From: a virus
Taxonomy: Duplodnaviria; Caudoviricetes
DNA: 64,000 bases
Direction: 5' to 3' (one strand)
Virus record (IMG/VR): IMGVR_UViG_3300030104_006170
Position 1 is the first letter of the stretch. Every line of letters starts with the position of its first letter. Position numbers and translations under genes: made by a program. Below, piece after piece: positions 34,162-63,270 of this stretch. The notes under the pieces were generated by a model that was not told the origin of the DNA, did not search any database, and saw nothing but the letters and a program-made list of their open reading frames with translations.

Positions 34162-35907
34162 TTATCGGACCTTCCCAAATAACCACCCGTAATCTTTATA
34201 CATCTGTTTTGCATCACTATTTTGATTTCCTGGTTGTCCAAAAATCCCTCTATTAGCTGGTGGTTTTCTATGTTCTGGTTCTTTACTTTCTCCATTTGCA
34301 CTCCCTGAAGTGGTCCAACTATCCAACATAGCTTTAGTTAAACTATCTGCTTTTTGTAGTTGTGAAAAAGAATTTTCCCCCACATATAAAGCCATTGCTA
34401 TTGCCATTATTAAATCATCGTGTTTTCCCTTCATATGATTAGGTTTACCATTTATATAGACAAAAGTATATAATTCGTTCAATAATCTTTTAGAACGTAT
34501 AGTAAATTTATGTCTTAATGACTCTTCAAATGCCGCTACAATTTGACTTCGTTTATTATTAAAAGCCAATCCTGGAGTTTTATTTCCATCATTAGGGTTG
34601 TATTTCCATTTATCAGCGGTATTCATACCTTCAACATATAGGTCTTTATACCCTAGTTCTTGTAGTTTTCTAGATGTTGCGACACCCATACCACCTGTAA
34701 TGTCAGTAACAACATAAGCATTGTACATACTCCCCCATTTATATACTATATCTGCTGCTAAATCTGGCGGTATCTTACCTAAATATTCTAAAACCTGACA
34801 CCTTTCATCAAAATCTATTATGATGATAGAAGTAAAATCTTCTGAGTCACCCCTACTAACATCACACCCCAAAATATATCTGTGACCTTCTTTAGGTTTT
34901 TCCCAAACCCATAACTGATTACCCACAAACATTTCTTCTGGGTCTCTGATATCTTCATTTTTTATTCTCTCTATTGTCTCTACTGGTATTACATTATCTC
35001 CTGAACCTAAAAAAGCACTTTCTAATTCTTGTGAAACTTTTCTTCTATCGTACTTAAGTTTTTTAACCATACTCTCAAACCAAGAAGAACAAGGTTTATA
35101 ACCATTCCTAATTAAATCCTCAAACTTATCTAAACTTTTTTCATGTATAAATTCATCCTCATTATAATCTTCCCTATTTAATAAAAAATGCACTATATCT
35201 TTACATTTAACCCAAAAAAGGTCTTTTGTAAATCTGGGGTCATTTTCCCAATGTAGTTCAGAAATATGAAAACTATTTAAACCTTTGATGGCTTGTTCAT
35301 ATATTTCATAATATATTTTATCATAACCATTAGGTGTAGATATCACTATTACTTTACCACCCGTGGATAAGGATGCCATACATGCCGCCCAAAAATCATC
35401 ACCAGCTTCAATATATGCAGCTTCGTCAAATATTAGTGTTGTTGGTGTGTATCCCCTTAATGCATCTACTGATGTTGCTACTGCTTTAACTTCACAACCA
35501 TTATTTAACTTGAAATGTTTTTGTGAGTCTTTTTCTTTAGAAAAACCTACGTTAATCCAATCAGGCCACTGATTTAAAAAACCTCTAACTTTATTTGCAA
35601 ATTCAGATGCAGTATCTAATTTATTTGCAATAATAAGTATTTTTTCTGGTTTAGTTTTAGAAGCAAATTGTAATTTTTTGGACACCCAAGCTGCTGTAGC
35701 TGTTGAAACTCCGGCTTGTCTATACTTTTTAGTTATGTTGTCACTATACTCATCAAAATTAGATAACATCATCTCCTGTTCAGGAAACAAATTAAAAGGT
35801 ACATATTTAGATTGTGTATTGTCGTATGTTTCTAGATATGTTTTAATAGCATAATTAGTATCTTGTAAGCATCTTGCATATTCTTTTATCAACTCTTGTT
35901 TGTCCAT
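34162..35907 (-). CDS. terminase large subunit, T4 gp17-like
   Basis: Walker A variant KYRQAGVST, Walker B LIFDEAAYI, ISTPNG, nuclease motifs GCDVSRG and HDDLIMA. Confidence 0.93.
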   Translation of the reverse strand: MDKQELIKEYARCLQDTNYAIKTYLETYDNTQSKYVPFNLFPEQEMMLSNFDEYSDNITKKYRQAGVSTATAAWVSKKLQFASKTKPEKILIIANKLDTASEFANKVRGFLNQWPDWINVGFSKEKDSQKHFKLNNGCEVKAVATSVDALRGYTPTTLIFDEAAYIEAGDDFWAACMASLSTGGKVIVISTPNGYDKIYYEIYEQAIKGLNSFHISELHWENDPRFTKDLFWVKCKDIVHFLLNREDYNEDEFIHEKSLDKFEDLIRNGYKPCSSWFESMVKKLKYDRRKVSQELESAFLGSGDNVIPVETIERIKNEDIRDPEEMFVGNQLWVWEKPKEGHRYILGCDVSRGDSEDFTSIIIIDFDERCQVLEYLGKIPPDLAADIVYKWGSMYNAYVVTDITGGMGVATSRKLQELGYKDLYVEGMNTADKWKYNPNDGNKTPGLAFNNKRSQIVAAFEESLRHKFTIRSKRLLNELYTFVYINGKPNHMKGKHDDLIMAIAMALYVGENSFSQLQKADSLTKAMLDSWTTSGSANGESKEPEHRKPPANRGIFGQPGNQNSDAKQMYKDYGWLFGKVR

Positions 35908-41849: not shown

Positions 41850-43724
41850 TTACTTTACTTCTTCGTATTCTACATCTGTGGCGGATTCTTCAGAATTTCC
41901 TGTTGTGTCATCTGTCATATCTTGTTCGGTAGATTCATACATCTTAGTACTAATTTCTTGCCAAGTACTGTTTAATTTTTCTGTTAAATCTTCTACCCCT
42001 TCCATATCCTCTTCTTTACAAACTTCTCTAAGTTCTTTAATTGTGTTTTCTAGACGAGATTTATCGGTGTCTTCTAATTTATCCCCAAATTCCTTAATTT
42101 GTTTTTCAGTTTGGAACATCAGTGAGTCGGCCTCGTTTAACTTTTGAATCTTTTCTAGTTTTTTTGTATCTGCTTCTGAATTTGCCTCGGCTTCTTTTCT
42201 CATTCTCTCTATTTCATCGTCAGATAGACTACTTCCAGACTCAATCTTAATATTTTGTTGTTTACCAGTACCTTTATCTACAGCCTTAACATCTATAATA
42301 CCATTTGCGTCGATATCAAAAGTAACCTCTACTTGTGGAATACCTCTTGGTGATGGTGGTATGTCGGTTAGTTGGAATTTACCTAAAGTTCTATTGTCAG
42401 TGGCCATTGGTCTTTCACCTTGTAAGACATGAATGTCAACAGCTGGTTGGTTATCTACCGCTGTAGAGAAAACTTGTGATTTGGAGGTTGGGATTGTTGT
42501 GTTTGCATCTATTAATTTAGTCATTACCTGTCCCATAGTTTCAATACCTAAAGATAGTGGTGTTACATCTAATAATAAAACATCATTTACGTCACCCGCT
42601 AAAACACCTCCTTGAATGGCTGCTCCCATCGCTACCACTTCATCCGGATTAACCCCTTTAGATGGTTTTTTATTAAATAATTTTTCTACAGCTTCCTGTA
42701 CTGCTGGAATTCTAGTAGAACCCCCCACTAATAAAATTTCATCGATATCTGAAGCTTTTAATTTTGCGTCTTTTAAAGCTTTTCTACAGGGTGTTAAACT
42801 TTTTTTAACTAAATCACTAACCATAGACTCAAATTTTGCTCTAGATAAATTACGTACCAAATGTTTTGGTCCGGTATTGTCAGCTGTTATATATGGTAAA
42901 TTAATTTCGGTTGTATTTGAGTTTGATAGTTCTACTTTTGCTTTTTCTGCAGCCTCTCTAAGTCTTTGTAGTGCAGATGGGTCTTTAGATAGGTCCATAC
43001 CATTTTCATTATTAAACTCATCTAATAACCACTCGATTATTTTTTCATCAAAATTATCTCCACCTAAGTGAGTATCACCGTTAGTAGATTTTACTTCAAA
43101 CACACCGTCACCGAGTTCTAAGATTGACACGTCAAATGTACCACCACCTAGGTCATAAACAGCAACTGTCATATCTTTATTTTGTTTATCCATACCATAA
43201 GCTAATGCAGCAGCGGTAGGTTCATTTATAATTCTAAGTACTTCAAGACCGGCAATTTCTCCAGCTTCTTTTGTTGCTTTTCTTTGTTCGTCATTAAAAT
43301 AAGCTGGTACTGTTATTACAGCTTGGGTTACTTTTTCACCGAGATAGTCTTCGGCTGTCTTTTTTAGGTTTTGTAGTACTACTGCTGAAATTTCTTGTGG
43401 TACATACTTTTTATCATTCACGTCTATAGTTACAACACCTTTTGTTCCTTTAACTACTGAGTAAGGCATTTTTTTTGCTTCCTTACTAATTTCACTAAAT
43501 TTACTACCAATAAATCTTTTTACAGAATAAATAGTATTTTTAGGATTTGTAACTGCTTGTCTTTTTGCTGGGTCACCCACACTACGGTCACCATCTTTAA
43601 AAGATACAATAGAAGGTGTGGTTCTTTTTCCTTCTGCATTTACAATTATTTCTGGGTTTCCACCCTCTACCACAGAAACACACGAATTCGTTGTTCCTAA
43701 ATCAATTCCAATTACTTTTGTCAT
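41850..43724 (-). CDS. dnaK: Hsp70 chaperone DnaK
   Basis: [62 protein letters not shown]. Confidence 0.98.
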
Positions 43725-43782
43725 TTTTAATTAATTTTCTTTTTTTTATTTGTTTATGAAATTATTTTCATTAGTTTTGTAG

Positions 43783-43799
43783 TACAATTACTGTACCAA
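43783..43799 (-). promoter_or_regulatory. sigma54-like (-24/-12) element upstream of dnaK
   Basis: Minus strand TTGGTACAGTAATTGTA = GG-N10-GT, about 60 nt before the start. Confidence 0.45.
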
Positions 43800-43821
43800 A
43801 AGTAATAAATAATAAGTAAGA

Positions 43822-43855
43822 TGTCAAACCTGACATAACTAATGACATTTTGTCA
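43822..43855. promoter_or_regulatory. TGTCA/TGACA inverted-repeat cluster, candidate regulator binding site between dnaK and clpC
   Basis: TGTCA-N4-TGACA-N7-TGACA-N3-TGTCA. Confidence 0.55.
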
Positions 43856-43902
43856 GTGGTTGATTCTTATAAGAAATATAGTAAATTTAAATAAAAAAGA
43901 AT

Positions 43903-45939
43903 ATGATAGATTTTAGTGCGGACTCCGAAATGGAAGAAATTAGTGGGAAAGAGGAACCTACACAATCAAATAGTGAAAGTGGTACACCAATACTAGACAA
44001 TTTTTCACGTGATTTGACTGCTCTTGCAGCAAAAAATAGATTAGACCCAGTTATAGGTAGGGATGATGAAGTTAAAAGAATAGTGCAAATTCTTGCAAGA
44101 CGTAAAAAAAATAACCCAGTTCTTATAGGTGAACCGGGTGCGGGAAAAACTTCCGTAGTTGAGATGTTAGCGACAATGATTCATAAAGGTCAGTGTCCTA
44201 GAAAATTATTAAATAAAAGAATAGTTCTTTTAGAACTTTCTTCATTGGTTGCGGGTACCAAATATCGTGGTCAGTTTGAGGAGAGGATGAAAGCTATCAT
44301 AGATGAGTTAAGAGAAAATAAGGATGTTATTATTTTTATAGATGAAATTCATACTGTGGTTGGTACTGGAAATTCTTCTGGGAATTTGGATGCTGCTAAC
44401 ATTTTTAAACCGCCTTTAGCTAGAGGTGAAGTACAGTGTATTGGTGCAACAACAATGGATGAGTACCGTGAAAAAATTGAGAAAGATGGGGCCTTAGAAA
44501 GAAGGTTTCAAAAAGTAACTATAGAACCACCCACACTTAACGAAACTATTGAGATTTTAGAGAATATTAAGCATGTTTATGAAGACCATCATAATGTTAT
44601 ATATGATAAAAATTGTGTTGAGTTATGTGTTAAATTAGCGGATAGATATATAAGTGATAGAGCTTTTCCAGATAAAGCTATAGACATTATGGATGAGGTC
44701 GGTTCGATGGTACAAATAGATGTTAAAACCCCAAAATCTTTAGAGAAATTAAAAAATGATATTGGTGTATTAAAAAAGGAAAAGATTGATGTTGTTAAAT
44801 CACAAGACTACGAAAAAGCTGCTGACTTAAGGGATAAGGAACGTAAATTAACCACTAAATTAAAGACATTAACTCAGAATTGGGAGGAAAAACAATCTTT
44901 ACATAAAATTCCTGTCACAGTAGAGAATATAATGTCGGTGGTTTCTAAAATAACAAAAATTCCTTTAAGTAGAATGAATCAAAATGAAAAAAAGAATCTT
45001 CTTAATTTAGATAAGCATTTAAAAAAGAGTGTTGTCGGTCAAGATAAAGCGATTGATACTATTGTAAAATCTGTAAGAAGAAATTCTGTCGGGATTAAGG
45101 AGTTAGATAAACCTATTGGTTCTTTTATTTGTTTGGGACCTACTGGTGTTGGTAAAACTCATTTGGCAAAAAAATTAGCTGAACTAATGTTTGGTTCGGA
45201 AGAATCAATGATTAGAGTCGACATGTCCGAATACCAAGAAAAACATTCTGTATCAAGGTTAATAGGTTCTCCTCCAGGTTATGTTGGTTATAATGAAGGT
45301 GGTCAATTCACAGAAAAAGTTAGACAAAACCCATATTCTTTAATTCTTTTTGATGAGATAGAAAAGGGTCATCGTGAAATATTTAATATTTTATTACAAA
45401 TTTTAGATGATGGTTATGTGACTGATGCTTCTGGAAGAAAAATAAATTTTAAAAATACCTTAATAATGATGACCTCAAACATAGGTGTTAAAAACTCACA
45501 AGATTTTAGTAATAGTTTAGGATTCACAACCAAAGCCTCTCAACAAACTGATAAAGAAAGAGTTAGAACAATAATCTCAAAATCTCTTAAAAATACTTTT
45601 AACCCTGAATTCCTTAATAGGTTAGATGATATTATTATTTTTGAGACTTTAGATAAAGAGAGTATTAAGAAAATTGTTAAAATTGAGTTGTCACATTTAA
45701 CATCTAGATTAGTAGAAAAGGGGTATACAATTAAGTTTGGTCCTTCTATTGTTGACCATATATGTAAAATTGGTTATGATGAAAAATTTGGAGCTAGACC
45801 ATTAAAAAGGTCGATACAATCAGAAGTAGAAGATTTTATTGCAGCTCAAATACTTAAGAGTGATGTTACCGAAGGGAAAGTTTATAGTATGAGTTATAAT
45901 AAAACGACAGAAAAATTTAAATTGATTGAAAAACAATAG
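43903..45939 (+). CDS. clpC: ClpC-type Hsp100 AAA+ ATPase lacking the N-terminal Clp repeat domain
   Basis: GEPGAGKT, LVAGTKYRGQFEER, IFIDEIH, UVR-like QDYEKAADLRDKE, GPTGVGKT, LIGSPPGYVGY, GARPLKR. Confidence 0.9.
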   Translation: MIDFSADSEMEEISGKEEPTQSNSESGTPILDNFSRDLTALAAKNRLDPVIGRDDEVKRIVQILARRKKNNPVLIGEPGAGKTSVVEMLATMIHKGQCPRKLLNKRIVLLELSSLVAGTKYRGQFEERMKAIIDELRENKDVIIFIDEIHTVVGTGNSSGNLDAANIFKPPLARGEVQCIGATTMDEYREKIEKDGALERRFQKVTIEPPTLNETIEILENIKHVYEDHHNVIYDKNCVELCVKLADRYISDRAFPDKAIDIMDEVGSMVQIDVKTPKSLEKLKNDIGVLKKEKIDVVKSQDYEKAADLRDKERKLTTKLKTLTQNWEEKQSLHKIPVTVENIMSVVSKITKIPLSRMNQNEKKNLLNLDKHLKKSVVGQDKAIDTIVKSVRRNSVGIKELDKPIGSFICLGPTGVGKTHLAKKLAELMFGSEESMIRVDMSEYQEKHSVSRLIGSPPGYVGYNEGGQFTEKVRQNPYSLILFDEIEKGHREIFNILLQILDDGYVTDASGRKINFKNTLIMMTSNIGVKNSQDFSNSLGFTTKASQQTDKERVRTIISKSLKNTFNPEFLNRLDDIIIFETLDKESIKKIVKIELSHLTSRLVEKGYTIKFGPSIVDHICKIGYDEKFGARPLKRSIQSEVEDFIAAQILKSDVTEGKVYSMSYNKTTEKFKLIEKQ

Positions 45940-47083: not shown

Positions 47084-47584
47084 ATGAAATTAGAAAAAGC
47101 AAGAAATATAGCCCTTAAATTGATGAGACAACACGGTCTCAATGACTACACTTTTAAGTGGGACAGAGCGGTTCGTAGATTTGGTTGCCACAATGGTAGA
47201 TTAAAAACACTTTCGCTTTCTAGACCTATGACTCAACACGAAACTAACGAAAAAAGAGTAATTAATACCATCCTTCATGAAATTGCACATGGACTAGATT
47301 ATAAAAACAGAGGATATTCAAATCATGATTCCGAGTGGAAAAGAGTGGCTAGGTCTATTGGTTGTAGTGGTGAAAGATGTAGTAGTGGGTCTGGTGTTGA
47401 CAAGTCTCAATTTATGAAATGGGTAGCTACTTGCCCTAATTGTGAAAGAGAAGTTTATTATGCAAGAAAAACAAAAGTAGAGAAAGCGTGTGGTAGTTGT
47501 TGTAAAAAACATAATAACAACAAATACACATCAAAGTATAAGTTTAACTGGGAATTAAATCCCAAAGTTGTAAAATATAGATAA
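47084..47584 (+). CDS. SprT-like zinc metalloprotease
   Basis: TILHEIAH, HDSEWK, CxxC...CxxC zinc ribbon. Confidence 0.9.
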   Translation: MKLEKARNIALKLMRQHGLNDYTFKWDRAVRRFGCHNGRLKTLSLSRPMTQHETNEKRVINTILHEIAHGLDYKNRGYSNHDSEWKRVARSIGCSGERCSSGSGVDKSQFMKWVATCPNCEREVYYARKTKVEKACGSCCKKHNNNKYTSKYKFNWELNPKVVKYR

Positions 47585-48115: not shown

Positions 48116-48922
48116 ATGAAAGAAAAATTAAAAGAATTATTATCAATACCAACTAAGACTTGGGAGGAGGAAAGATTAATCAAATATCTTATAGGTCATT
48201 TCGAAGAAAAGGGTTATAAATATGAAAAAGATGATTTAGGTAATCTGTATGTAACAAAAGGGGTTTCTGATTATTATCCTTTAGTTCTTGCACATACTGA
48301 TAGTGTGCATGACATTGAGGAGATGGTTGTTGAAGAGGAGTATTTACCTAATTCCCAGGGAGAAAGTAAATTGGCTCTTAAGGCCTATAAAAAAGAAGAT
48401 GGTTCACCTACAGGTATAGGTGGTGATGATAAAGCTGGAGTTTTTATATGTTTACAATTACTGGAAAAATTTGACGTGATTAAGGGATTTTTTCCAGTTG
48501 CTGAAGAGACTGGATGTCATGGAAGTAGGGGTGCCAATGAAGAGTTTTTCAAGGATGTTGGTTACGCTATACAATTTGACTCTACTGAAAATGATACCAT
48601 GTCTCTTTCATTAATGGGTGTTCAATTATTTGAACAAAAATCTGAGTTCTTTAACAAAACTCGTAATATAATTTTAGAACATGGTTTTACTGAGTGGAGG
48701 CATCACCCATATACCGATACTATGGTTCTTAAAGATAAATTTAATTTTGCGTGTTTAAACTTCGCTGCGGGATATTACAATTACCATACTTCTAACGAAT
48801 ATGTTATCGTAGAAGATGTGAGAAATTCTATAAAGTTAGGTGAAAATGTTATAGGTAAATTAGGTAATTCTTTTTACGAATTTAAATCTACTAAGAAAGA
48901 GTCCGATTTTTGGTTTGACTAA
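48116..48922 (+). CDS. M20/M28-clan zinc peptidase
   Basis: LAHTDSVH, GGDDKAG, EETGCHGS, YHT..E. Confidence 0.85.
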   Translation: MKEKLKELLSIPTKTWEEERLIKYLIGHFEEKGYKYEKDDLGNLYVTKGVSDYYPLVLAHTDSVHDIEEMVVEEEYLPNSQGESKLALKAYKKEDGSPTGIGGDDKAGVFICLQLLEKFDVIKGFFPVAEETGCHGSRGANEEFFKDVGYAIQFDSTENDTMSLSLMGVQLFEQKSEFFNKTRNIILEHGFTEWRHHPYTDTMVLKDKFNFACLNFAAGYYNYHTSNEYVIVEDVRNSIKLGENVIGKLGNSFYEFKSTKKESDFWFD

Positions 48923-49430
48923 CAACCTCTTCTATCCAGTCTGCAACAGGTTTATAAACATAAGTATTCTCATCACCAAATATATTTGTAAAGTCTTCGT
49001 ACTCAACAAAACCCTTTTCTGCATTAGCTCTAAAGTCTATTTCTGGGTATAAACCTAATTTCTGTACATCAACTATCATCTCTGCAATTACACCAATTAA
49101 CCAAGCATTCATAAACTCATAATCACTCATCTTAATAACTCTTTTTTCTAGTGTTTCCCTCCAATTTTTGTCCAAATAATTTAAAAGGTAAAAATCCATT
49201 TTTTCCTGACTCATACCTTCAGTTAATTTTTCTTCCTTTAAAAGGTCATCTAAAAGTGTAATTGTGTACGGGTTCCAATCACTATCTTTATTGACAAAGT
49301 GTAAAACAGTAGCTACCTTACCATTAACTTCTAATATGTTAGAAATATTTTTAATTTGGTTTAAAGTATCACCTTCTGAGTTTTCAATAATACTATTAAC
49401 TCTATTTAGTAAGTGTTTAGTAGTGGTCAT
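48891..49430 (-). CDS. hypothetical late protein
   Basis: Late motif at 49442-49449; N-terminal IIE site. Confidence 0.55.
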   Translation of the reverse strand: MTTTKHLLNRVNSIIENSEGDTLNQIKNISNILEVNGKVATVLHFVNKDSDWNPYTITLLDDLLKEEKLTEGMSQEKMDFYLLNYLDKNWRETLEKRVIKMSDYEFMNAWLIGVIAEMIVDVQKLGLYPEIDFRANAEKGFVEYEDFTNIFGDENTYVYKPVADWIEEVVSQTKNRTLS

Positions 49431-49707: not shown

Positions 49708-50113
49708 GGGGATGACTGGAATTGATTGGCGTAAGTCGATTGGTGTCAGCACGTCAAGCCTGAATTAAGCTTGTAAAACTGATTCATTTTTTTAACTGGC
49801 AAAACAATTGCTAAGTTGGCGACTTTAGGACTTGTCCATGAGGAGTCAACAGTGGCTGTAGCGTAACTAGGTTACGACATAGCTCCATCTCTTCTAAAGA
49901 ATTTAAGATTTGTGTCTTTAGTTTTTGAGGTGTCAAATAGACAAATCGAACCCGGTAAGTTTCCCTCCGGTATACCTAGGGGACTTGGGACTGATTTGAA
50001 GGTTGTTTATTCTATAGAATTAAGTCCGACAACAAAAGAATAAACTAAACGTGTAGGATAGACGTTAGTTGAATGCGAACAAGACGTGGGTTCGAATCCC
50101 ACCATCTCCACCA
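49708..50113 (+). ncRNA. ssrA: tmRNA (406 nt); predicted tag (A)GKTIAKLATLGLVHEESTVAVA* at 49798-49866
   Basis: 5' GGGGATG pairs with 3' CATCTCC-ACCA including G3:U70; T-arm GTGGG-TTCGAAT-CCCAC; TAACT-GGC resume context. Confidence 0.93.
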
Positions 50114-50142: not shown

Positions 50143-51267
50143 TTATTTTAATATTTTAGCTAAACCTATCGGTTCTTTTTGTAGTACTAAACCTAATCCC
50201 TCATTTACCGTTTCACTAATTATTTTACCATCTTTAACGGTAAATCTCACATCTTCAAAACCACCACCTGGACCAAATAATTTTATTATTCCAGATTCAT
50301 GGTTAGGGTCTAGTATTTCTGTACCTACCTCATCTCTTAATCTTGCATTAAGTGTTCTAGATGAGTCGTGCATTTTAATATCACTTACACTATCCACTTC
50401 ACCATTTTTATCTGTGTTTGGTGTGATTGAAAATTGACCTAGTGGTTGTGAGTCCCCACCATAAACTGTAAGTCTAGTAAAAGGAAATGTTCTGTTAGAG
50501 TCGTTTTTCTTAAATTTTGTTTTAAATATCGCTACGGTTAATGCGTTTGCAAATTCATTTATTAATTTTTGTGAAAATTGTCTAGTATAAAAACCTTTTT
50601 GGTTTTTTAAAAATATCCCTTTGGGTTTAATTTTTTCAATTAGGTCTTTCATACCCTCTTTTACTTGAAAGATGTGGTCATTGTCTATAGCTCCATTATC
50701 TATCCATTTTGCAATATCTGTGGTAGGTGATATCCATCCTTCATCCGTGGTATCTTCTTCACCAAAACAACCGTATCTCCCATTACAAAATAAGTATTTA
50801 TTTTCTACAGCTAATTCTTGTTCATACTCACAATTAATATCTACAACTCCTTCAGGTGCTTTGTTATCTACACAATCATTTGTTAAACAATAGTAATTTG
50901 TTGCCCCTGAGTCTAAACAACCGTATATAACTTCTGGTTCTTTTGCTGTTTCTCCACCACCACTTCCATTTTGTACTACGGTTTCTTCTTCTTCACCTAT
51001 AATTTCACAAAGTGGTTTTCTTAACTCTTTAATTACCCTTTGTTCAGCAGCACTTTGTTGTACGAATGGTGAACTCTCCATATCCTTTAATAAACCTTTT
51101 AAAGAACACGCTTGTGATTTGTCCTTAGAGTCAACTATTGATTTGTGGACATCCTTTACCTTTTTATCATTTAGGTTATCTACAGTTGCATCCTTAACCT
51201 TAAGATTAGCAGGGGTGGTAAAATCCCAAGAACTATGTGTGATATTTAAACAACTACAACTTGCCAT
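50143..51267 (-). CDS. hypothetical late protein with one YGCxDxxAxNY motif
   Basis: IYGCLDSGATNYYC; Cys-rich; last gene of a four-gene late operon. Confidence 0.55.
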   Translation of the reverse strand: MASCSCLNITHSSWDFTTPANLKVKDATVDNLNDKKVKDVHKSIVDSKDKSQACSLKGLLKDMESSPFVQQSAAEQRVIKELRKPLCEIIGEEEETVVQNGSGGGETAKEPEVIYGCLDSGATNYYCLTNDCVDNKAPEGVVDINCEYEQELAVENKYLFCNGRYGCFGEEDTTDEGWISPTTDIAKWIDNGAIDNDHIFQVKEGMKDLIEKIKPKGIFLKNQKGFYTRQFSQKLINEFANALTVAIFKTKFKKNDSNRTFPFTRLTVYGGDSQPLGQFSITPNTDKNGEVDSVSDIKMHDSSRTLNARLRDEVGTEILDPNHESGIIKLFGPGGGFEDVRFTVKDGKIISETVNEGLGLVLQKEPIGLAKILK

Positions 51268-51270
51268 ATT

Positions 51271-52974
51271 TTACATCATTTCTTTTACAATGTCCATTAC
51301 TACTTTCATTTTATCTTCACCTTCAGGCCAATCATCTAACATCCCACTTATGAAACCTTCATCTGTGTCTTCCACTTTATCTGGTTCTCCTTGTGTATAA
51401 ATATCAGGTGTGTTTTTTGCTACCGTTCTAGCAGCTGCATTAAAATCTAGTGGATTATACTTTCTTAAACAGTCATCGTAAGTTTTGCCCTCACAATTTT
51501 GCAGTAGTACTGCGAGTAAAGCACCGTCTATTGGTCCACGTTTTCTACTGTAGTACTTTATGTCACCATCCCTTAGAACACTTCTGTACCTTGGCCAATT
51601 TTTTCCTACTGTTTCCAGGTATTTTGTTCTATCTTCAACTGAAGATGATGTTGTCCATCTTTTACTCTCTAATTCATTTGCGACATCTTTTATTTGGGTA
51701 TCTCCCAAAAATCTTGATACTGGGTATGGTGATATTTTGACTGACATATCTTTAAGTGCATTTTCCAATGTACCTGTGGTCCCTGATACCTTATTTTCCC
51801 ACATATAACAAATCTGTGATGCTGCTAAAACACTAGGGGCATCATTATAGACCGCCATAACTGCTGTATCATCTACTGTGTTTGGTATAAGATTTCCTAC
51901 TAGTGCGTCTTGTATCTTTTCTGCTTGTTCTAAAGCCTCCGCATCTGTGTAACCACCGTATTCTTCCACAAACCTTTTATTTGCCATTACATCTATATAC
52001 ATATCTGGAGTTAAACCTGCTTTTGCTTTACCCATAGTATTGTATGCCCAATCCATAAAATAATTAATCCCAAGGGTTATCGTTACCCAACCAAGAAGTA
52101 CTCTTCCTTGTATTGTCGTAAATAACCAGTTAAGTAAATTTTTCCCTTTCAATGCAACATATTCCCAACCGGTTCGTTTTATCGCCTTTTGGTAAATACT
52201 TTTAACCAATGGGTCGTCAGATTTCCTACCCATCATTGTAGCTAAATCCCCAATTCCAAAATCTTCTCTAACTAGTCTTTGGAATTCCTTTGAGTTTTTT
52301 AATATTTTTATCATCTCATCTTGGTAGTTTGGGTGATTTATTAAAGCCCCGAATATATCTTCTAACCTGCCCTTTCCACCAATTGTACCTGAGGTACTTA
52401 TATTGTTCATAATTTTAGTTATCTGTTCTTCTGGTATTTCTATTTGTTTTAACACCATTCTAAACTCATCTAAATTTTTAACTTTAACTACACCTGAAAT
52501 TGCGTCAATTAATGGTTTTTGAAATTCCGATGGTTTTCCTTTGATTAAGATGGTTGATACGTCTTCCATTGTCTCTCTAGCTATACGGTTTATCGCTATC
52601 AAAAATTCATCTTCCCCTTTACTCCAAGACTTACCCAGAGAATTTGCCTGAGATTCACTTATTTCTATACCCGCACCTTTAAATCTTTTCTTAAGAGCTT
52701 GTCCATTATTTCTTATTACAGCATTTGTTTTTTCCATAACTTCAGATAACACCTCCACCATATTAGAATTTTTAACTAATTTAGTGATAGGTATAATTCC
52801 TACCGCATCTCCAAACTCTCTTTTTATAGTTTTACCTAGTGCTATCATAGGTGAGTCACCGGCCTTTAGTAAACCTCTAAAAAATCTTAGTAAACTAGAC
52901 TGTTCTAAAATTAAGGGTTTTAATCCCATTATTTTACGAGTTCGATTTATTTCAGTTAAAATTGTTTTTTTCAT
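51271..52974 (-). CDS. class-B leader protein with hydrophobic helix and weak annexin-like repeat
   Basis: MKKTILTEINRTRKIMGLKPLILEQ; VLLGWVTITLGINYF; AEKIQDALVG...DDTAV. Confidence 0.5.
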   Translation of the reverse strand: MKKTILTEINRTRKIMGLKPLILEQSSLLRFFRGLLKAGDSPMIALGKTIKREFGDAVGIIPITKLVKNSNMVEVLSEVMEKTNAVIRNNGQALKKRFKGAGIEISESQANSLGKSWSKGEDEFLIAINRIARETMEDVSTILIKGKPSEFQKPLIDAISGVVKVKNLDEFRMVLKQIEIPEEQITKIMNNISTSGTIGGKGRLEDIFGALINHPNYQDEMIKILKNSKEFQRLVREDFGIGDLATMMGRKSDDPLVKSIYQKAIKRTGWEYVALKGKNLLNWLFTTIQGRVLLGWVTITLGINYFMDWAYNTMGKAKAGLTPDMYIDVMANKRFVEEYGGYTDAEALEQAEKIQDALVGNLIPNTVDDTAVMAVYNDAPSVLAASQICYMWENKVSGTTGTLENALKDMSVKISPYPVSRFLGDTQIKDVANELESKRWTTSSSVEDRTKYLETVGKNWPRYRSVLRDGDIKYYSRKRGPIDGALLAVLLQNCEGKTYDDCLRKYNPLDFNAAARTVAKNTPDIYTQGEPDKVEDTDEGFISGMLDDWPEGEDKMKVVMDIVKEMM

Positions 52975-52984
52975 TTTTCTTTTT

Positions 52985-54235
52985 TTAATATGCTAACCCT
53001 GCTTCATCATAAATTTTATATAATGTTTCTATATCGGATTGTTTCTTACTTGTAAATAGTCTTGTAAAAACTTTACAATTTTTTAAATAGTTAGGGTATT
53101 TTGATATAAGTTCTGGTGCAACCTCCTGTATTAATTCATACACTATAACATATTCGTTTTGGTACCCATCAGGTCTCCATCCTTTTTGCCACTCTTTCCA
53201 AACATTATCTTCTGTAAAGTCTTTTGTTGGGTAATCTTGTTTCCAAGCAAATTCTATCGACATTTCTCCATCACCATCCCAAGTGTATACTTTTCCAGTA
53301 CAGTCAAATGGTGTAGTTGTAATAGCTCCTTTAACATTACCATTATTCTCTAAAATTTTATTCCATAAAATAAGTCCCAATTTAGGTTTATCTTTTAACC
53401 AATCAGAAAATGAATTCTTTCCAGCTATTACTTCAATAAGTTCTGCTGGTAGTTGTGGGTCATACCAACACATTTCTATAAAAATAACCAATGCTCTAAT
53501 TAAGTATTCTGCTCCACTCATCATAGTTTCAAGACCTGGTATACTACCGTAATAAGCTCTAGCTGTAGCTTTTGCTGCTGTAAAACCAGCCAATAGTTCT
53601 CTTGCTAAAGACTTAGGAAATATTTTTCTAGCTAATTTTACTTGTTTTGGTGTTAACTTGGCCACTTCTTGAGCTACTGTACGACTAATATTTTTTGACC
53701 CATTCCAAGCTGTTTTAAATATTATATTTAAAGGTGTTTTTAATGGTTTTGCGACATATTTAAGAGCTTCACCACCTGGTACAACAGCGAAAGCTAGTTG
53801 CATTCCTGCGGAATAATAATCATTCTTAGTATAAACATATAAAAGTGCATTACATATATCTGCAACAACTGATATTATACAACCAGCACCAGCAGTAAAA
53901 CCACAAAGTAAATAAGCTACAAAAGAAATAGCGTCAATAACATAGTGATACCATGAATCGGATGCACTTACACTAGAACTACTAGACTTACTAGTATTGT
54001 AATCTTTACCACCATACTGTAAATCAAAATAGGTGTCATAAACTGTTCTTTGTTCCCTAACTTCTTCTTTCCTTTTAGAATTGTCTTTTTCAGGTCCGTA
54101 CAATTTTTCTAGATTTCTTATCACCTCACGAAATTGTTCAGGGGAAGTTATTTTGTCTTCTTCTCTAATATCCATAATAGACTCAACTATTAAGTTAACC
54201 AGTTCCTTATGTGTTAATTTTATGGTATTTTTCAT
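52985..54235 (-). CDS. class-A leader protein with pre-toxin TG-like hydrophobic hairpin
   Basis: MKNTIKLTHKELVNLIVES; ADICNALLYV..KNDYYSAGMQLAFAVVPGG. Confidence 0.55.
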   Translation of the reverse strand: MKNTIKLTHKELVNLIVESIMDIREEDKITSPEQFREVIRNLEKLYGPEKDNSKRKEEVREQRTVYDTYFDLQYGGKDYNTSKSSSSSVSASDSWYHYVIDAISFVAYLLCGFTAGAGCIISVVADICNALLYVYTKNDYYSAGMQLAFAVVPGGEALKYVAKPLKTPLNIIFKTAWNGSKNISRTVAQEVAKLTPKQVKLARKIFPKSLARELLAGFTAAKATARAYYGSIPGLETMMSGAEYLIRALVIFIEMCWYDPQLPAELIEVIAGKNSFSDWLKDKPKLGLILWNKILENNGNVKGAITTTPFDCTGKVYTWDGDGEMSIEFAWKQDYPTKDFTEDNVWKEWQKGWRPDGYQNEYVIVYELIQEVAPELISKYPNYLKNCKVFTRLFTSKKQSDIETLYKIYDEAGLAY

Positions 54236-54236
54236 A

Positions 54237-54983
54237 TTAGTATAATGGATTTGCTTTACCTCTTCCTGGTTGATAAGAGTCTGACCATTTGGTATTTCCT
54301 AGTTGATTGGCCACACCTCTTGCTATTCCAGAATCCCAAACACCCATACTGGCTGTCCCAGCTCCTGCGGCATCATCAGATTCCCCACTTTCAGTCCCAG
54401 CCTCTTGTTCACCTAATTCATAATTCATAAGTATTTCAGAATCCTCAACTCCAGACATGTAACTATCTTCTGGACCATCACTATCAAAATTATAACCTTT
54501 TTTAATTTTAGAGTAGTTAGTTTCTGGCTCAGTAAAACCTTCATCACCTAATTCTGGTTGGGAACCTAGAGCTCCCTTACTTTGGAAATCATATGCGTTA
54601 TCACCTTCTGAGTCATCTGCGTATCCACCTTGTAGACCAGACATTATTTCTTCTCCTAAATCTAGTGTTATTACTTCTTCTTCATGATGGTCTTCGTGTT
54701 CGTCATAATCAAATGAGTTGGCTACACTGTCTATATTATCCGCCATTTGTGCAATTTTAGACTCCATCCAATCTTCTAACTGTTCATTATCCCCCAATCT
54801 ATCATGAACACTTTGTGCTTTTTTAGCGATATTATAAAGTTGTTGTTTTGCCATATAAGAACCGTGGTGTTTTTTTTCGTGTTTTGGTTTAACGTCACCA
54901 CACCCCTCATTTATCTGGTTTTCCGATGAGGTACCAAATATAAGTTCCTTAACTCTAGCAATTTCTTCTTGTATAGTAGGCAT
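54237..54983 (-). CDS. class-B leader protein, acidic, with helical domain and W..(S)..RG.AN.L double motif
   Basis: MPTIQEEIARVKELIFG; YMAKQQL...WMESKI; VWDSGIARGVANQL and KWSDSYQPGRGKANPL. Confidence 0.55.
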   Translation of the reverse strand: MPTIQEEIARVKELIFGTSSENQINEGCGDVKPKHEKKHHGSYMAKQQLYNIAKKAQSVHDRLGDNEQLEDWMESKIAQMADNIDSVANSFDYDEHEDHHEEEVITLDLGEEIMSGLQGGYADDSEGDNAYDFQSKGALGSQPELGDEGFTEPETNYSKIKKGYNFDSDGPEDSYMSGVEDSEILMNYELGEQEAGTESGESDDAAGAGTASMGVWDSGIARGVANQLGNTKWSDSYQPGRGKANPLY

Positions 54984-55003: not shown

Positions 55004-55011
55004 TATAAATA
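55004..55011 (-). promoter_or_regulatory. candidate phage late promoter TATTTATA (four-gene leader operon)
   Basis: 20 nt before ATG 54983. Confidence 0.55.
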
Positions 55012-55041
55012 TAACAAAGGTGGACTAATTGCCTACCTTAT

Positions 55042-55367: not shown

Positions 55368-55778
55368 TTAAAGTCTTCTAGATTTTAACCAGAAAATTTC
55401 TCTACCAGCACGAGTTTCTAAAGCTCTTAATTTTTGTTTAGACCTTTTTAAATTTAAATCTTCAGACTTTTCTAAATCTTCCATTAAAAAAGATGTGAAC
55501 TCCAGTACGTCAGCATTTAATTCTTCTACATATTGTACCCTATCTTGGAGTTGCATAATTTGTTCTTCCATTAAACCCATTATTTCTTCAGGGGAAAGAA
55601 TTTGTTCTATTTCATCTTCTAACGCTTCTAAATCAGCATCCACCATTTCATCGTCTTCTAGGGTTGGGTCGTCACCACGAAGAGTAGCTAACACTTCATC
55701 GTCACCTAATTCTTGTTCTACAATTTTTTTAATAAGTCCAGTTAACTGTGCTTCTGTTAAGGTTAATTTTTTTGCCAT
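55368..55778 (-). CDS. class-A leader protein, acidic coiled coil
   Basis: MAKKLTLTEAQLTGLIKKIVEQE; late motif upstream. Confidence 0.6.
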   Translation of the reverse strand: MAKKLTLTEAQLTGLIKKIVEQELGDDEVLATLRGDDPTLEDDEMVDADLEALEDEIEQILSPEEIMGLMEEQIMQLQDRVQYVEELNADVLEFTSFLMEDLEKSEDLNLKRSKQKLRALETRAGREIFWLKSRRL

Positions 55779-56282: not shown

Positions 56283-56708
56283 TTAGAACTTGTACGAGAA
56301 ACCTAGATTGAAAGTTCCCTCTCTCTCACCAGCTTCATCTTCTTTTAATCCCATACTGTATCTTGGCTCAACATTAAGACCTTTCCATACATTGTAAGAA
56401 TAACCGACACCAACAGTCATGTTGTCCATCATTTCTTCCGTAGGAGCTTGAAGAGATACGAATGTGTTAGCATTCCAGTTGTATCTTCCCCATAAGTCAT
56501 AAGTCATTTCACCTTCAGCATCTTCGCCAGCTTGAATCATACCCACAGTCCAAGTGTCATTCAATGCATAACCAAAACCTAAGTTTTGAGTTACTTTGTC
56601 CATTGTTTCTTCTTGGTCACCGTCATAGGTTCCTATGACCATGAAATTCTGAGCTGATGCAAATAACGTTGATAAGGCTACAGCGGATGTTAAAATCAAT
56701 TTTTTCAT
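56283..56708 (-). CDS. small outer-membrane beta-barrel protein
   Basis: Signal peptide MKKLILTSAVALSTLFASA-Q; alternating amphipathic strands; C-terminal FNLGFSYKF beta-signal. Confidence 0.8.
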   Translation of the reverse strand: MKKLILTSAVALSTLFASAQNFMVIGTYDGDQEETMDKVTQNLGFGYALNDTWTVGMIQAGEDAEGEMTYDLWGRYNWNANTFVSLQAPTEEMMDNMTVGVGYSYNVWKGLNVEPRYSMGLKEDEAGEREGTFNLGFSYKF

Positions 56709-58633: not shown

Positions 58634-59236
58634 ATGAAAACAATAATAACTACATTACTAATTTTACTAGGGTTGAATACTTACTCACAAACGTGTGAGG
58701 TTGGTTTAATGGTTAATGGTAAGTTAACTTACTTTGAGTACGATTGTAACAATAAGGAACATGGTATAGATAGTATTAAGATAGCTAATTATAATTTTTT
58801 GACTTTATCTGAATTAAAAGAGTTGGACTTGTTAGTTTTTAGGTATGTTAACGAACATAGAATTAAAAATGGTCTAGGTAAACTACCTTGGGATTCGGAA
58901 CTTTATAAAATTACTGAGTCTCATACTAAATACCAGTTTGATAATGGTGTGGTAGAACACGAACAAAATGGAAAATCTTATGAAGAAAGAGTAAGAGAAA
59001 ATGGAATCTATATGGGTGAGTGTGTTTTGTTAACTGGTCCATGTGTTAATATAGATGATAAGGCTAGAAAAATTGTTCGTCAGTGGGTTGAGAGTCCAAC
59101 CCATAACCGTATATTGTTAGATATTAAAGCTAAGTCTATTTCGGTTTCCACAAAACTAGGTACTTTTTACTGTTCCTGGGATAATAATAAATTATATTTG
59201 GGTTCTGGCGTTTCTACTTTAAATGTTAGATATTAA
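58634..59236 (+). CDS. secreted CAP (SCP/PR-1) domain protein 1
   Basis: Signal peptide ending TYS-Q; VNEHR.KNGL..L.WD.EL...TE.H; WVESPTHNRILL. Confidence 0.85.
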   Translation: MKTIITTLLILLGLNTYSQTCEVGLMVNGKLTYFEYDCNNKEHGIDSIKIANYNFLTLSELKELDLLVFRYVNEHRIKNGLGKLPWDSELYKITESHTKYQFDNGVVEHEQNGKSYEERVRENGIYMGECVLLTGPCVNIDDKARKIVRQWVESPTHNRILLDIKAKSISVSTKLGTFYCSWDNNKLYLGSGVSTLNVRY

Positions 59237-60864
59237 CTGGTTTTATCCTCACTTTCACATTTTAAACCTATTGTGTATTGAGTAGTACTTAATGGTGCTA
59301 TAGCTTCTATTTTTACATTAGGTTTACCATAAACTTTGTTTATTGTTACACTCTGAGGTTTTCCAACTACCCCCTGTAAAAGTAATTTTTTAATTTCAGG
59401 GTCACTAGCATACTCAGATGCTCTATTGAGTAGTTGGTTATATGAACCACCACCTAATTCTTTAATTTTTTCCTCGTCTAACTCATAAACTTTTTTTTCT
59501 TTATTATAACTAATTAATTTACTTTTTCGGGCTTTTTTAAAGAATTTATTACTGGATATTTTTCCCATAACTTTATCCCTAACGTCTTTCCATTGATTAT
59601 ACTCACCACATTCTATATCAAAACCTAATTCATTAGCTTTTTTATATGCATAGTTAGTTATTGCCTCACTCCATCCCCAATACTCTTTAAACCATTCTCT
59701 ATTAGTCATACCTCTACGTGCTTCCCCATTAATATCCTTTAACTTACAAAAATGAAAAACACTCAAAGGTGTATTTTTCTTTTTACCATACTGACTTCTA
59801 ATCTTTTGTAATACATCTTTAGTCTCTTGAGGTATAGTACTTATTAATCTTTTTTCGATTTCGTCAATTTTTTGTTGAGCGGCTAAATGGTTTTCTACTT
59901 CTTTTCTAAGTGGGCCTAACTCAATCGTGACATCAATTTTATCACCTGTTTTTTTGTTTGTTCCCGCATTTGGTATTGTTACAAATGGGTCATCCATTTG
60001 TTCTGGATTGTTACTTGTAAAAGGAACATAAGTTACCTCACCATTATAAGTGATTTTAAAAGCGTCAGGAACAAGCCAAGGGTTAAACTGCAAAGTTATT
60101 TTACCTTCAGTATATTTTCCTAGATTTAAATTACCTTCTTTATCTAATTTTACTCCTGATTTCTCTTGTGGTTCTAAAGTTGCAATCCAATTATTATTTT
60201 TATCACCTTGTTTACCCTTAACACTTAATTTTTTCCCACAACCATAAATTGCGCGACCTTTTACTTTTTTGGTTCCCTCTACATTTATCGCCACAAATTT
60301 TGTAGAATTTGTTTGTGGGTTGGCTTTTACTAGTGCCGATAATTCTTTCCAGTTTTCATTAACTTTATCTTGGTCAAGATTATTATACTTTCCACCCCAT
60401 TTTTTAGATATAAATTTATTTAGTAATTCTAAAATTACTTCCCCTCGTTTTCTAGCTAATATTTTATTGTCTGGTTCTTCATTCCCATATGAAAAATCTA
60501 CTTGTTCTTGGGAATATCCTTTAGGGACCGCTCTGTTAGCTGGGGTTGGTGAGGCTCCTGAATCAATAGATATACTTTTTGGTGTGTAATCTGCAGCTAA
60601 ATTCTTTTTTAATTTTATAATAAAGTCTTTTAAAGAAGGTAACATATTTTTCATTGTAATTCGTGAAACATCAGTGACACCTTCATTACCTTTTGCTATA
60701 GGTAGTACTATATTATCTGGGAATGTAATAGGTGTCATACTATTACCAACTAATACATCCACGTCCGGTAAAGTTCTTACTACATTTCTAGATTGTTCCA
60801 ATAAAACTTCTAGACCCATAATTTCTTTAACTCTATTAATTTCTGATATAATATTCTTTTCCAT
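59233..60864 (-). CDS. class-B leader protein with OmpA_C-like segment
   Basis: MEKNIISEINRVKEIMGLEVLLEQ; ISIDSGAS...DNKILARKRGE.I...L. Confidence 0.5.
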   Translation of the reverse strand: MEKNIISEINRVKEIMGLEVLLEQSRNVVRTLPDVDVLVGNSMTPITFPDNIVLPIAKGNEGVTDVSRITMKNMLPSLKDFIIKLKKNLAADYTPKSISIDSGASPTPANRAVPKGYSQEQVDFSYGNEEPDNKILARKRGEVILELLNKFISKKWGGKYNNLDQDKVNENWKELSALVKANPQTNSTKFVAINVEGTKKVKGRAIYGCGKKLSVKGKQGDKNNNWIATLEPQEKSGVKLDKEGNLNLGKYTEGKITLQFNPWLVPDAFKITYNGEVTYVPFTSNNPEQMDDPFVTIPNAGTNKKTGDKIDVTIELGPLRKEVENHLAAQQKIDEIEKRLISTIPQETKDVLQKIRSQYGKKKNTPLSVFHFCKLKDINGEARRGMTNREWFKEYWGWSEAITNYAYKKANELGFDIECGEYNQWKDVRDKVMGKISSNKFFKKARKSKLISYNKEKKVYELDEEKIKELGGGSYNQLLNRASEYASDPEIKKLLLQGVVGKPQSVTINKVYGKPNVKIEAIAPLSTTQYTIGLKCESEDKTS

Positions 60865-60957: not shown

Positions 60958-61497
60958 ATGAAAAATATAACAACAACCATATTATTAGTTTTACTATCTT
61001 TATTAAGTTATTCTCAAGAGTACTACAGAGACACTACTATAGAACGAGCTGTTTTTAACGAAGTAAACCGACACAGAGATAGTCTGGGATTACACATGGT
61101 AAAATTTAACTCGGATAATATCCTAGCTTCTCCATGGGCAGAGACATTAACTAAACACGACTTAGAGACAGGTGGAAAGATTTATCATTGTGGTTGTAAT
61201 CCTGGTGTTGAGATTATTGCTATTAAGGTTATTGGTGATGAGGATAGAGTAACGATGGGTATAGATGAAATAGCTAAAAAAATAGTTCTAGCGTGGGATA
61301 ATTCTCCTTCTCATAAAGAAGGTATGGAAGATATTAATATGAAAAGAGGTTTCAATGCTGTGTACGTATTCAAAAGTAAAAGATACGGAGGTAAGTACGT
61401 GGCGTTATCAGTGTACCAATTTATTAGAGATAAAGAATATTATGTAAACTTAGACTGGGACGAAAATAAAAAAGTACCTAACCAATTCTTAGATTAA
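60958..61497 (+). CDS. secreted CAP (SCP/PR-1) domain protein 2
   Basis: Signal peptide ending SYS-Q; VNRHRDSLGL; AWDNSPSHKEGM. Confidence 0.8.
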   Translation: MKNITTTILLVLLSLLSYSQEYYRDTTIERAVFNEVNRHRDSLGLHMVKFNSDNILASPWAETLTKHDLETGGKIYHCGCNPGVEIIAIKVIGDEDRVTMGIDEIAKKIVLAWDNSPSHKEGMEDINMKRGFNAVYVFKSKRYGGKYVALSVYQFIRDKEYYVNLDWDENKKVPNQFLD

Positions 61498-61554: not shown

Positions 61555-62754
61555 TTACTTCATAGCTATAATCACCTCTTCTGCTTCTTTTTTAACAACA
61601 GATTTCTTTCTTGGTGACTTTTGACTCTTCCAAGTAATTTTGCCTGGAATATAAACTACCATACTGACGATAATTCCTTGTCCTGCCATATCTGTTTCTG
61701 TTCCAGTTTCTGTACCTACAGTTCTACCTGGTGTCCCTTCTCTAGCTGGTTGTTCTGTACTTACTATAACATCAGCTCTCATTTCGTCACCACCAACAGA
61801 ATACTTATAAGAATCTACCTTAATACCTACTTTTTCTAACTCTTTACCTAAATTCTGTGCTCTTAAATAAGCTAGTACCTGATTACCTGTTTTTGGTTGT
61901 GTAAACTTACCTGTAGTATTTGTAGTAATTTGTTCATCCGTAAAATTAGAATACTTATCACCAACATTCTTTCTCCACACCGCTACATTAGCGATTGGTT
62001 CATCTGAAGCTACACCATTAATTATTACGTTTGTTACCACATTACCTTTTGAAGCTGAGTTTTGGATTTGTTTGATTAGTTGTTTCATTTTTCCTGGGTC
62101 AGGAATAACTTCTAAAACATTAAATGCTGAACCTCCTGGGATTGGCTCACCTTCCGATGCTACACTTCCTTCTGTACCCCCTTTAGTAACTGACTGGTAT
62201 GTCTTTTTTAATCTCGACGTTGAGAATTGTATTAGTTCGTCTGTTATGGCTTCGATATTTGTTTCGGTTTCTGATTCTCCTTCATTATAAGACCACCCCA
62301 CTATTTGTCTTGTTCCGAAATTTTTAAAATTAAACTCGTTAAGTTTTATACACCACTTATTAGGTGTATATTCTCTACCATCATCAATAACTACTAAATC
62401 ACTAGAATCTTCTGACTGTACTAACCTCACTTTTTCATTTATACCATCATCTGAATCTAACATATCTGGTCTTAACATCCAAGCCATATATTGCCATTCT
62501 CTACCCATTTTTGACAAATTGTCACCTTTAAATACTTTCATAAGGGACCTTCTTAAATCAGTAGCCCAAGATTCAAAATCATATCCTCCTGCTATGTTTG
62601 GTCTTACTTTTTCTACATTATCGTATAACTCACCTTTATAAGTTTCTAAAAAATCTGTCCATTTAGATATACTTCTGTAAAAATTTTCCTTTATTAAGTC
62701 AAGGCCCATTATTTCACGAGCTCTGTTTACTTCATTTAATATTTCTTTTTTCAT
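61555..62754 (-). CDS. class-B leader protein with OmpA_C-like domain
   Basis: MKKEILNEVNRAREIMGLDLIKEN; VIINGVASD...GNQVLAYLRAQNL...L...RADVIV. Confidence 0.55.
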   Translation of the reverse strand: MKKEILNEVNRAREIMGLDLIKENFYRSISKWTDFLETYKGELYDNVEKVRPNIAGGYDFESWATDLRRSLMKVFKGDNLSKMGREWQYMAWMLRPDMLDSDDGINEKVRLVQSEDSSDLVVIDDGREYTPNKWCIKLNEFNFKNFGTRQIVGWSYNEGESETETNIEAITDELIQFSTSRLKKTYQSVTKGGTEGSVASEGEPIPGGSAFNVLEVIPDPGKMKQLIKQIQNSASKGNVVTNVIINGVASDEPIANVAVWRKNVGDKYSNFTDEQITTNTTGKFTQPKTGNQVLAYLRAQNLGKELEKVGIKVDSYKYSVGGDEMRADVIVSTEQPAREGTPGRTVGTETGTETDMAGQGIIVSMVVYIPGKITWKSQKSPRKKSVVKKEAEEVIIAMK

Positions 62755-62787: not shown

Positions 62788-63270
62788 TTAATTCCACAAT
62801 ACGTGGACTGTTTTATCATTAAAGTCTATTTCTAACCCTGTCGGAAACACACTGTGTGAGAATAGTTCATCCGACATTTGGTCTTCGTAATGCCACTTAC
62901 CTTCTTCATCACTACTAAATCCACCCATGTCGTCTACCATTAATTCGATTTCTTTTTCTACCTCTACTTTGGTGTAATCTTCATCATATATTTCTACCAT
63001 CGCATTTATAATTACACTAGTGGTGTAAACACTCACGTCTTTGATTCCCCAACTTCTTACATCCATATCATATCTCCATTTAACATAACAGTTTGTATAT
63101 GTTACATCCATATCCTGACCACTATACTCGGTGAAATATTTTTCTAACCCGTAAAAACTAACATCTTGGACTTCAGTATTAAATGCGTTTGGGTCATCTG
63201 AATATTGTTCTTTTATTACCTTCTCAGTAATATTAACTAATTGACTTTCCTTTACGATTATTTTTTTCAT
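62788..63270 (-). CDS. class-A leader protein, acidic cargo
   Basis: MKKIIVKESQLVNITEKVIKEQ; three late motifs upstream. Confidence 0.6.
   Translation of the reverse strand: MKKIIVKESQLVNITEKVIKEQYSDDPNAFNTEVQDVSFYGLEKYFTEYSGQDMDVTYTNCYVKWRYDMDVRSWGIKDVSVYTTSVIINAMVEIYDEDYTKVEVEKEIELMVDDMGGFSSDEEGKWHYEDQMSDELFSHSVFPTGLEIDFNDKTVHVLWN

Follow-up and report, generated by a model that had tools for sequence, protein, structure and literature searches.

The protein P0001 is encoded on the minus strand of a 64,000-nucleotide stretch of DNA, referred to as the window, and the coordinates of its gene, its modules and the related features are collected in Table 1. The window derives from an uncultured marine T4-like jumbo phage of low GC content (~31%) and carries T4-type head genes together with a prohead protease gene. 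The same stretch is present in the marine metagenomes of at least 10 studies besides the likely source study. At 41850–45939, the window encodes a full-length DnaK/Hsp70 (877 bits) and, divergently, a ClpB-like double AAA+ ATPase. The DnaK is 63–66% identical to DnaK proteins of Bacteroidota (Saprospiraceae, Flavobacteriales), a similarity that gives a hint of a Bacteroidota host. A run of ~28 genes on one strand (1–26261, plus strand) encodes, among others, a DegT-type aminotransferase and an RmlD-like/GT2 fusion and resembles a cluster for sugar modification. A phage-encoded SprT-like zinc metalloprotease (47084–47584, plus strand) and three small proteins with hydrophobic N-terminal signal-like peptides (56283–56708, minus strand; 58634–59236 and 60958–61497, plus strand) were also found, and one of the three small proteins shows weak similarity to an outer-membrane beta-barrel.

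The start codon of P0001 lies one base after the stop codon of the upstream 248-aa gene, which couples the two genes in translation and makes the region from 54983 down to 50143 one four-gene operon. The operon is conserved in a related locus (L001), where a homologue 41% identical to the 567-aa product of gene 3 is found at the same position. In L088, the locus of a more distant phage, the gene order is retained and the similarity is weak. Searches of Pfam, PHROGs and NCBIfam with P0001 and its three operon partners gave no matches. The original prediction had remarked that no immunity gene is evident beside P0001, and we came to the same result: there is no small immunity-like gene downstream, the next gene encoding the 567-aa protein, which itself bears a leader. 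A tmRNA gene, whose tag peptide ends in VAVA, is located directly beside the operon (49708–50113, plus strand). Two short contigs from a marine metatranscriptome library are identical to positions 53009–53166 and 50779–50946 of the window; they hint weakly at transcription in the sea, and the library may contain carried-over DNA.

Table 1. Positions in the window of the P0001 gene, its modules, its operon and the T4-type head genes.
Feature	Residues of P0001	Position	Strand	Remarks
Whole ORF (P0001)	1–416	52985–54235	minus	416 aa, ATG start, stop codon included
Leader	1–25	54161–54235	minus	Two I-x-E sites, I-V-E18 and I-R-E25; candidate capsid-targeting propeptide
Variable N-terminal part	26–94	53954–54160	minus	Segment conserved in close relatives, then variable Ser-rich linker; pLDDT <50
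Hairpin module	95–160	53756–53953	minus	Two hydrophobic Gly-rich helices, DYY.AG turn, AF..VPGGE cap
Basic region	161–297	53345–53755	minus	Basic amphipathic helical region, net charge ~+9
C-terminal domain	298–416	52988–53344	minus	C312/C387 pair, W..GWRP motif, pLDDT 75–92
Operon gene 1		54237–54983	minus	248 aa, acidic, class-B-like leader; homologue at same position in L001
Operon gene 3		51271–52974	minus	567 aa, class-B leader ending I-L-E-Q
Operon gene 4		50143–51267	minus	374 aa
Promoter-like motif TATATTTAT		55005–55013	minus	21 nt before first start codon of operon
Gp23-type capsid protein		26781–28613		T4-type head gene
Prohead protease, T4 gp21-type (Peptidase_S77)		30288–30980	minus	90.5 bits, cut-off 27
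Portal		32273–34117		T4-type head gene
Large terminase		34162–35907		T4-type head gene

Word-indexed and exhaustive profile searches yielded 18 clusters of close homologues of P0001 and 37 representative clusters. The members are all metagenomic and without informative names, the only Pfam annotation in the family is PG_binding_1 in distant members, and a tblastn search of 50,697 phage records gave no match to P0001 among cultured phages. The family is an uncharacterized, phage-only (ORFan) and modular one, known from marine phage metagenome sequences only. The alignments showed five modules: a leader of ~25 residues, a variable N-terminal part, the hairpin, the basic amphipathic helices, and a C-terminal domain. 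Distant members retain the leader and the hairpin, and the N- and C-terminal modules are freely swapped among relatives. The variable N-terminal part extends to hundreds of residues in relatives and can include a domain that is encoded in the window as a separate gene (48891–49430, minus strand, 179 aa); in relatives, this domain forms the N-terminus of 634–974-aa proteins with the hairpin core (L001 5942–8134; P0012), and L001 encodes the hairpin core both within such a fusion and in a separate hairpin gene. In another locus, L087, two tandem hairpin genes adjoin baseplate hub and wedge genes. The hairpin gene of L002 (1339–3064, on a contig with 3x coverage) appears as two overlapping ORFs, 255 and 333 aa long, a split that points to a frameshift or an error of assembly; the gene that follows them (692 aa) is a paralogue of the hairpin core. 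When a profile of the short-type members was used for searching, no further architectures came up.

The class-A leader described in the original prediction was borne out. An HMM made solely of residues 1–30 of 16 family members matched the extreme N-termini of three unrelated proteins of the window, encoded at 25776–26261 (E = 9e-5), 55368–55778 (E = 0.002), and 62788–63270 (E = 0.22). The leader is conserved down to members that are only ~25% identical, and its conservation exceeds that of the residues after it. Judged from the sequence comparisons, the leader is a real and portable N-terminal tag. In most of the divergent members listed it ends in I/L-x-E(Q), and an I/L-x-E end has the form of sites cut by T4-related prohead proteases; such tripeptides are common by chance, which counts against the cleavage reading. 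The leader would be cut after I-x-E by a prohead protease, and the S77 protease of the window is presumably the enzyme that takes it off P0001. A second type of leader (..EINR.KEIMGL...L.EQ) was found on four further proteins of the window (51271–52974, 59233–60864, 61555–62754, and 54237–54983, all on the minus strand); it also heads the distant hairpin proteins P0033 and P0053 and the product of a 613-aa gene of L088.

A TATTTAT core is present 10–45 nt before the protease, portal and terminase genes, the P0001 operon, and six other leader genes. The core also precedes 31508–32248, where the full 9-mer TATATTTAT occurs; the full 9-mer was not seen before the protease, portal or terminase genes. 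The presence of one motif before both the operon and the head genes fits their co-expression, and the operon would then be expressed late. The motif also resembles the −7 promoter box of Bacteroidota and may therefore not mark late timing.

Of the 34 aligned members, 32 retain the C-terminal domain, and it is homologous in every one of them. Position 312 is Cys in 32/32 aligned sequences and position 387 in 31/32, and of the 33 members with this domain, 30 have an even number of Cys residues in it (2 or 4). The Cys pair and the even counts are consistent with an extracytoplasmic domain that has one or two disulfides, and the domain is probably disulfide-bonded. Two distant members, P0049 (47.8 bits) and P0053 (46.8 bits), end in PG_binding_1 instead of this domain. 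P0053, which combines the hairpin with PG_binding_1, occupies the same place in a collinear four-gene set of L088 that has weak similarity to the window genes, and can thus be regarded as the positional counterpart of P0001.

The hydrophobic peptide quoted in the original prediction is a real part of the ORF product and comprises P0001 residues 99–154 (56 residues). The hairpin module, present in a single copy in the window, has the consensus H..ID..S..AY..C..T.G.GC..SV..D..NA.LY...DYY.AG...AF..VPGGE..K. It is the best conserved part of the protein in 13 homologues with 39–92% identity to P0001 (22 invariant columns, S122–Y160), and in the 22-sequence module alignment only G118, Y133, D139, A143, G144, and P153 (P0001 numbering) are at least 90% conserved. 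The Kyte-Doolittle 19-residue mean reaches 2.0 in residues 95–137, the sole such stretch in P0001. Neither helix of the hairpin alone attains canonical transmembrane scores, each has a conserved Asp or Asn, and an approximate insertion energy of 0.5 kcal/mol was obtained for P0001 only with a segment spanning the turn. The relatives P0030 and P0036 are more hydrophobic, with two clear transmembrane segments and values of −0.8 to 0.9, whereas the distant short-type members gave 3–4.5 kcal/mol or no candidate segment, and no membrane span was predicted for them. By hydrophobicity, P0001 is a borderline case of a protein with true membrane spans, some relatives are clear cases, and the short-type members are weak ones. 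A match of P0030 to an XK-related Pfam family (24.4 bits, cut-off 24.8) was put down to membrane-like composition; P0030 also has a weak SLT match (E = 0.0023).

An AF2 model of residues 88–416, made with 34 sequences, is almost wholly helical (pLDDT 80, pTM 0.54); a first model of the full-length protein with 13 sequences (pLDDT 56) was set aside. In the model, the hairpin is predicted to consist of helices 95–109 and 117–137, and the end domain to be compact and mostly helical. Foldseek and VIA-align searches gave no significant fold match in any library searched, of solved or predicted structures, and a PDB sequence search with the module profile gave chance matches only (E ≥ 0.5). The colicin-type pore-forming domain, a ten-helix bundle with a buried hydrophobic hairpin, has a likeness of design only to P0001: no match to such a bundle was found in the PDB by Foldseek or VIA-align, and the reading of P0001 as a pore-former is without a supporting fold match.

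In a two-helix hairpin, both ends face one and the same side of the membrane, and the PG-binding swap together with the probable disulfide suggests that this side would be the periplasm. Since P0001 has no signal peptide and has ~95 charged residues ahead of the hairpin, entry from outside, after release from a virion, is the simplest account. The explanation that we favor, tentatively and at slightly less than an even chance, is that P0001 is a head-packaged, protease-trimmed and envelope-acting ejection protein, loaded as T4-style head cargo. P0001 would be made together with the head genes and taken into the prohead by its leader, which the gp21-type protease would remove after an I-x-E site. 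The mature protein would leave the virion with the DNA. In the periplasm, the ~40-residue Gly-rich hydrophobic hairpin would enter a membrane, the basic amphipathic helices would rest on the lipid surface, and the disulfide-stabilized end domain, in whose place distant relatives have a peptidoglycan-binding domain, would remain outside the cytoplasm. Alone or with its three operon partners, P0001 would thereby help to open, hold or seal the passage for DNA. The original prediction had likewise proposed a virion-delivered protein acting at the membrane, and this part of it gains indirect support from the leader with the S77 protease, the shared motif, the PG_binding_1 swap, the Cys pair, and the baseplate neighbors in L087.

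It is unlikely, although the hydrophobic hairpin invites the idea, that P0001 is produced in the infected cell as a membrane protein that acts there, its hairpin holding it in the inner membrane from the side of the cytoplasm. It might then serve in superinfection exclusion, in the timing of lysis or as a platform for assembly, and its N-terminal helix would be a normal structural part of the protein. If both ends were cytoplasmic, the strongly basic region that follows the hairpin would agree with the positive-inside rule, and the two clear transmembrane segments of P0030 and P0036 also count in favor of this reading; however, PG_binding_1 and the invariant Cys pair would be in the wrong compartment. 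A leader that is common to unrelated proteins, and better conserved than what follows it, also argues against this possibility, as does the presence of the operon's upstream motif before head genes.

We regard it as decidedly unlikely that P0001 is a fixed part of the virion, situated in the head interior, neck or baseplate, with the disulfides stabilizing the particle and the PG-binding variants aiding the grip of the tail on the wall. Owing to the weak insertion scores and the conserved Asp/Asn residues, the hairpin could be a buried core, and such an arrangement is consistent with a short-type module that is not predicted to span a membrane and with a model that packs as a helical protein. 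Baseplate genes adjoin the hairpin genes in L087, but in the window a long distance separates the gene of P0001 from the head genes, and nothing was recognized nearby as a tail or baseplate gene. Further, no structural-protein family or fold was matched, and free swapping of modules would be unusual for a fixed lattice component.

The original prediction had related the hairpin, on the basis of a D..NA..Y...GDY pattern, to the pre-toxin domain PT-TG (PF14449) and, as one of two alternatives, P0001 to polymorphic toxins. PT-TG is a helical domain with a conserved TG motif, found just before the toxin domains of Gram-positive bacteria (PMC3113570), and its best conserved part is a loop of ~15 residues with Gly, Asp, Arg, and TG (PMC13483458). 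The results showed that PF14449 (cut-off 23.5 bits) matches none of 13 members at E ≤ 10 and none of 10 more at E ≤ 1, nor anything in a close relative record (G001) at E ≤ 10, under conditions where a Bacillus subtilis control was positive. The TG motif and the conserved Arg are absent from the hairpin module in the 22-sequence alignment. Neither did P0001 display the architecture of a polymorphic toxin, as no toxin family was detected, no immunity gene was present, and the C-termini are conserved among close relatives. With no PF14449 match and with conserved C-termini, the two outcomes that the original prediction had named as speaking against it, the toxin reading is largely refuted, and P0001 is not a recognizable bacterial-type polymorphic toxin.

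What stood of the pattern is a local likeness to PT-TG-like proteins. The comparison set consisted of three sub-threshold proteins, namely two independent PT-TG-like proteins scoring 17.6–18.4 bits, just under the Pfam cut-off, and one homologue. Against the PT-TG alignment of this set, hhalign gave the module a probability of 66% (P = 5.6e-5) over 23 columns, covering only the part after the TG loop. The second half of the module aligns to the same GDY..G....PG site (~23–30 residues) in all three sequences; local-composition shuffling attained the alignment scores in 0, 0, and 3 of 3000 trials, and these scores are far above the 3.6-bit noise of the six frames of the window. One PT-TG-like protein has a 570-aa homologue that is LXG-like as judged by eye. 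Searches from one sub-threshold PT-TG protein returned only its own homologue, and none in plasmids; the SPbeta phage has no PT-TG, and ~1,240 genomes of one Bacillota-related phylum, mostly small ones, contained only two sub-threshold PT-TG matches. A language-model search with residues 90–300 returned PT-TG at 0.83, a level that shuffled proteins sometimes reach, and a PT-TG protein was ranked eighth among the AFDB Foldseek rows at a chance-level E of 0.5. With residues 298–416, the TNT, TreTu, and Tox-ART-HYD1 clusters were returned at 0.84–0.90, also within a range that shuffled proteins sometimes reach; PF14021 did not match any member, and no TNT, ART-type or other toxin fold was among the Foldseek rows.

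The GDY..G....PG likeness is regarded here as a motif-level resemblance, an unproven lead that lacks the defining feature of PT-TG and may or may not reflect common descent. PT-TG and the hairpin are both Gly-rich and helical and of about the same size, and a role of PT-TG at the envelope of the target cell has been proposed (PMC3113570, PMC13483458). Unlike PT-TG proteins, P0001 has no profile match, no TG/Gly-Asp-Arg loop, no swappable toxin domains, no immunity gene, and no LXG/WXG trafficking domain; PT-TG is found mostly in Gram-positive bacteria, whereas the P0001 family is found in marine phage metagenomes only. That the phage hairpin and bacterial PT-TG are distant branches of one membrane-engaging device is, in our estimate, very unlikely. 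If it were true, phage proteins delivered from the head would have an element homologous to one in type VII/polymorphic toxins with which both engage or cross the membrane of the target cell, and PT-TG would gain a testable role, the first functional handle on that widespread domain. It is highly improbable that P0001 is a toxin effector with a divergent PT-TG and an NADase- or ADP-ribosyltransferase-like C-terminal domain, delivered from the head as is T4 Alt, a packaged ADP-ribosyltransferase: the local PT-TG likeness, the database rows naming toxin families and the precedent of Alt speak for it, but the aligned part omits the very loop that defines PT-TG, neither Pfam profile matched any member, the language-model scores are all within the range of shuffled proteins, and the end domain is modeled as mostly helical with good pLDDT (Table 1) and no toxin fold, is conserved with no immunity gene beside it, and is swapped in P0049 and P0053 for a wall-binding domain and not for other toxins.

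The head-packaged ejection protein, which we prefer, has its closest counterpart in the cargo of T4 heads. T4 loads internal proteins by means of a capsid-targeting sequence, and in IPI–III and Alt this tag is cut off by the prohead protease gp21 (PMC3012670). As in these proteins, a short N-terminal tag ending in hydrophobic-x-Glu is found in the window on otherwise unrelated proteins, the cargo behind the tag varies widely, and a protease of the gp21 family (S77) is encoded in a T4-type head module. P0001 fits T4-type capsid-targeted cargo on two features, a tag common to unrelated proteins and an S77 protease matched by a hydrophobic-x-Glu end of the tag. The leader differs in sequence from the T4 tag, and the packaging and cleavage of P0001 are predictions. 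Neither a hydrophobic hairpin like that of P0001 nor an end domain of apparently extracytoplasmic location occurs in any T4 internal protein. What T4-type phages load into their heads is thought to be soluble anti-defense proteins and enzymes, and, to our knowledge, head-loaded membrane proteins have not been described for T4-type myoviruses.

The giant myoviruses phiKZ, 201phi2-1, and SPN3US resemble the phage of the window in having many head-borne proteins. Giant phages process ejection proteins at x-E sites; in these three, a related protease trims propeptides off after Glu, and the E proteins are believed to accompany the DNA into the cell (PMC5694885). The E proteins have no sequence or fold similarity to P0001, their protease belongs to S80 and not to S77, and hairpin modules are not known in them. 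The same job as that proposed for P0001 is performed by the pilot or ejection proteins of podoviruses and siphoviruses, which have no homology to P0001: gp7, gp16, and gp20 of P22, gp14–16 of T7, and Pb2 of T5 are virion proteins that leave with the DNA, insert in the host envelope and make or guard the passage for DNA.

As kinds of system, T4-type tagged head cargo and phage ejection proteins are known already. What is new is an unnamed family in which a tagged cargo combines a membrane-type hairpin with a wall- or periplasm-directed end domain, a combination not described for T4-type phages. As it stands, this is an uncharacterized phage-only family with a reasoned, putative role. Its clear modules and its recurrence in marine metagenomes make it a defined target for expression and membrane assays. 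A protein that is loaded into the head, enters a membrane and holds on to the wall would be a new class of cargo beside the soluble cargo of T4-type heads, and a possible DNA-entry helper of giant marine phages of Bacteroidota.
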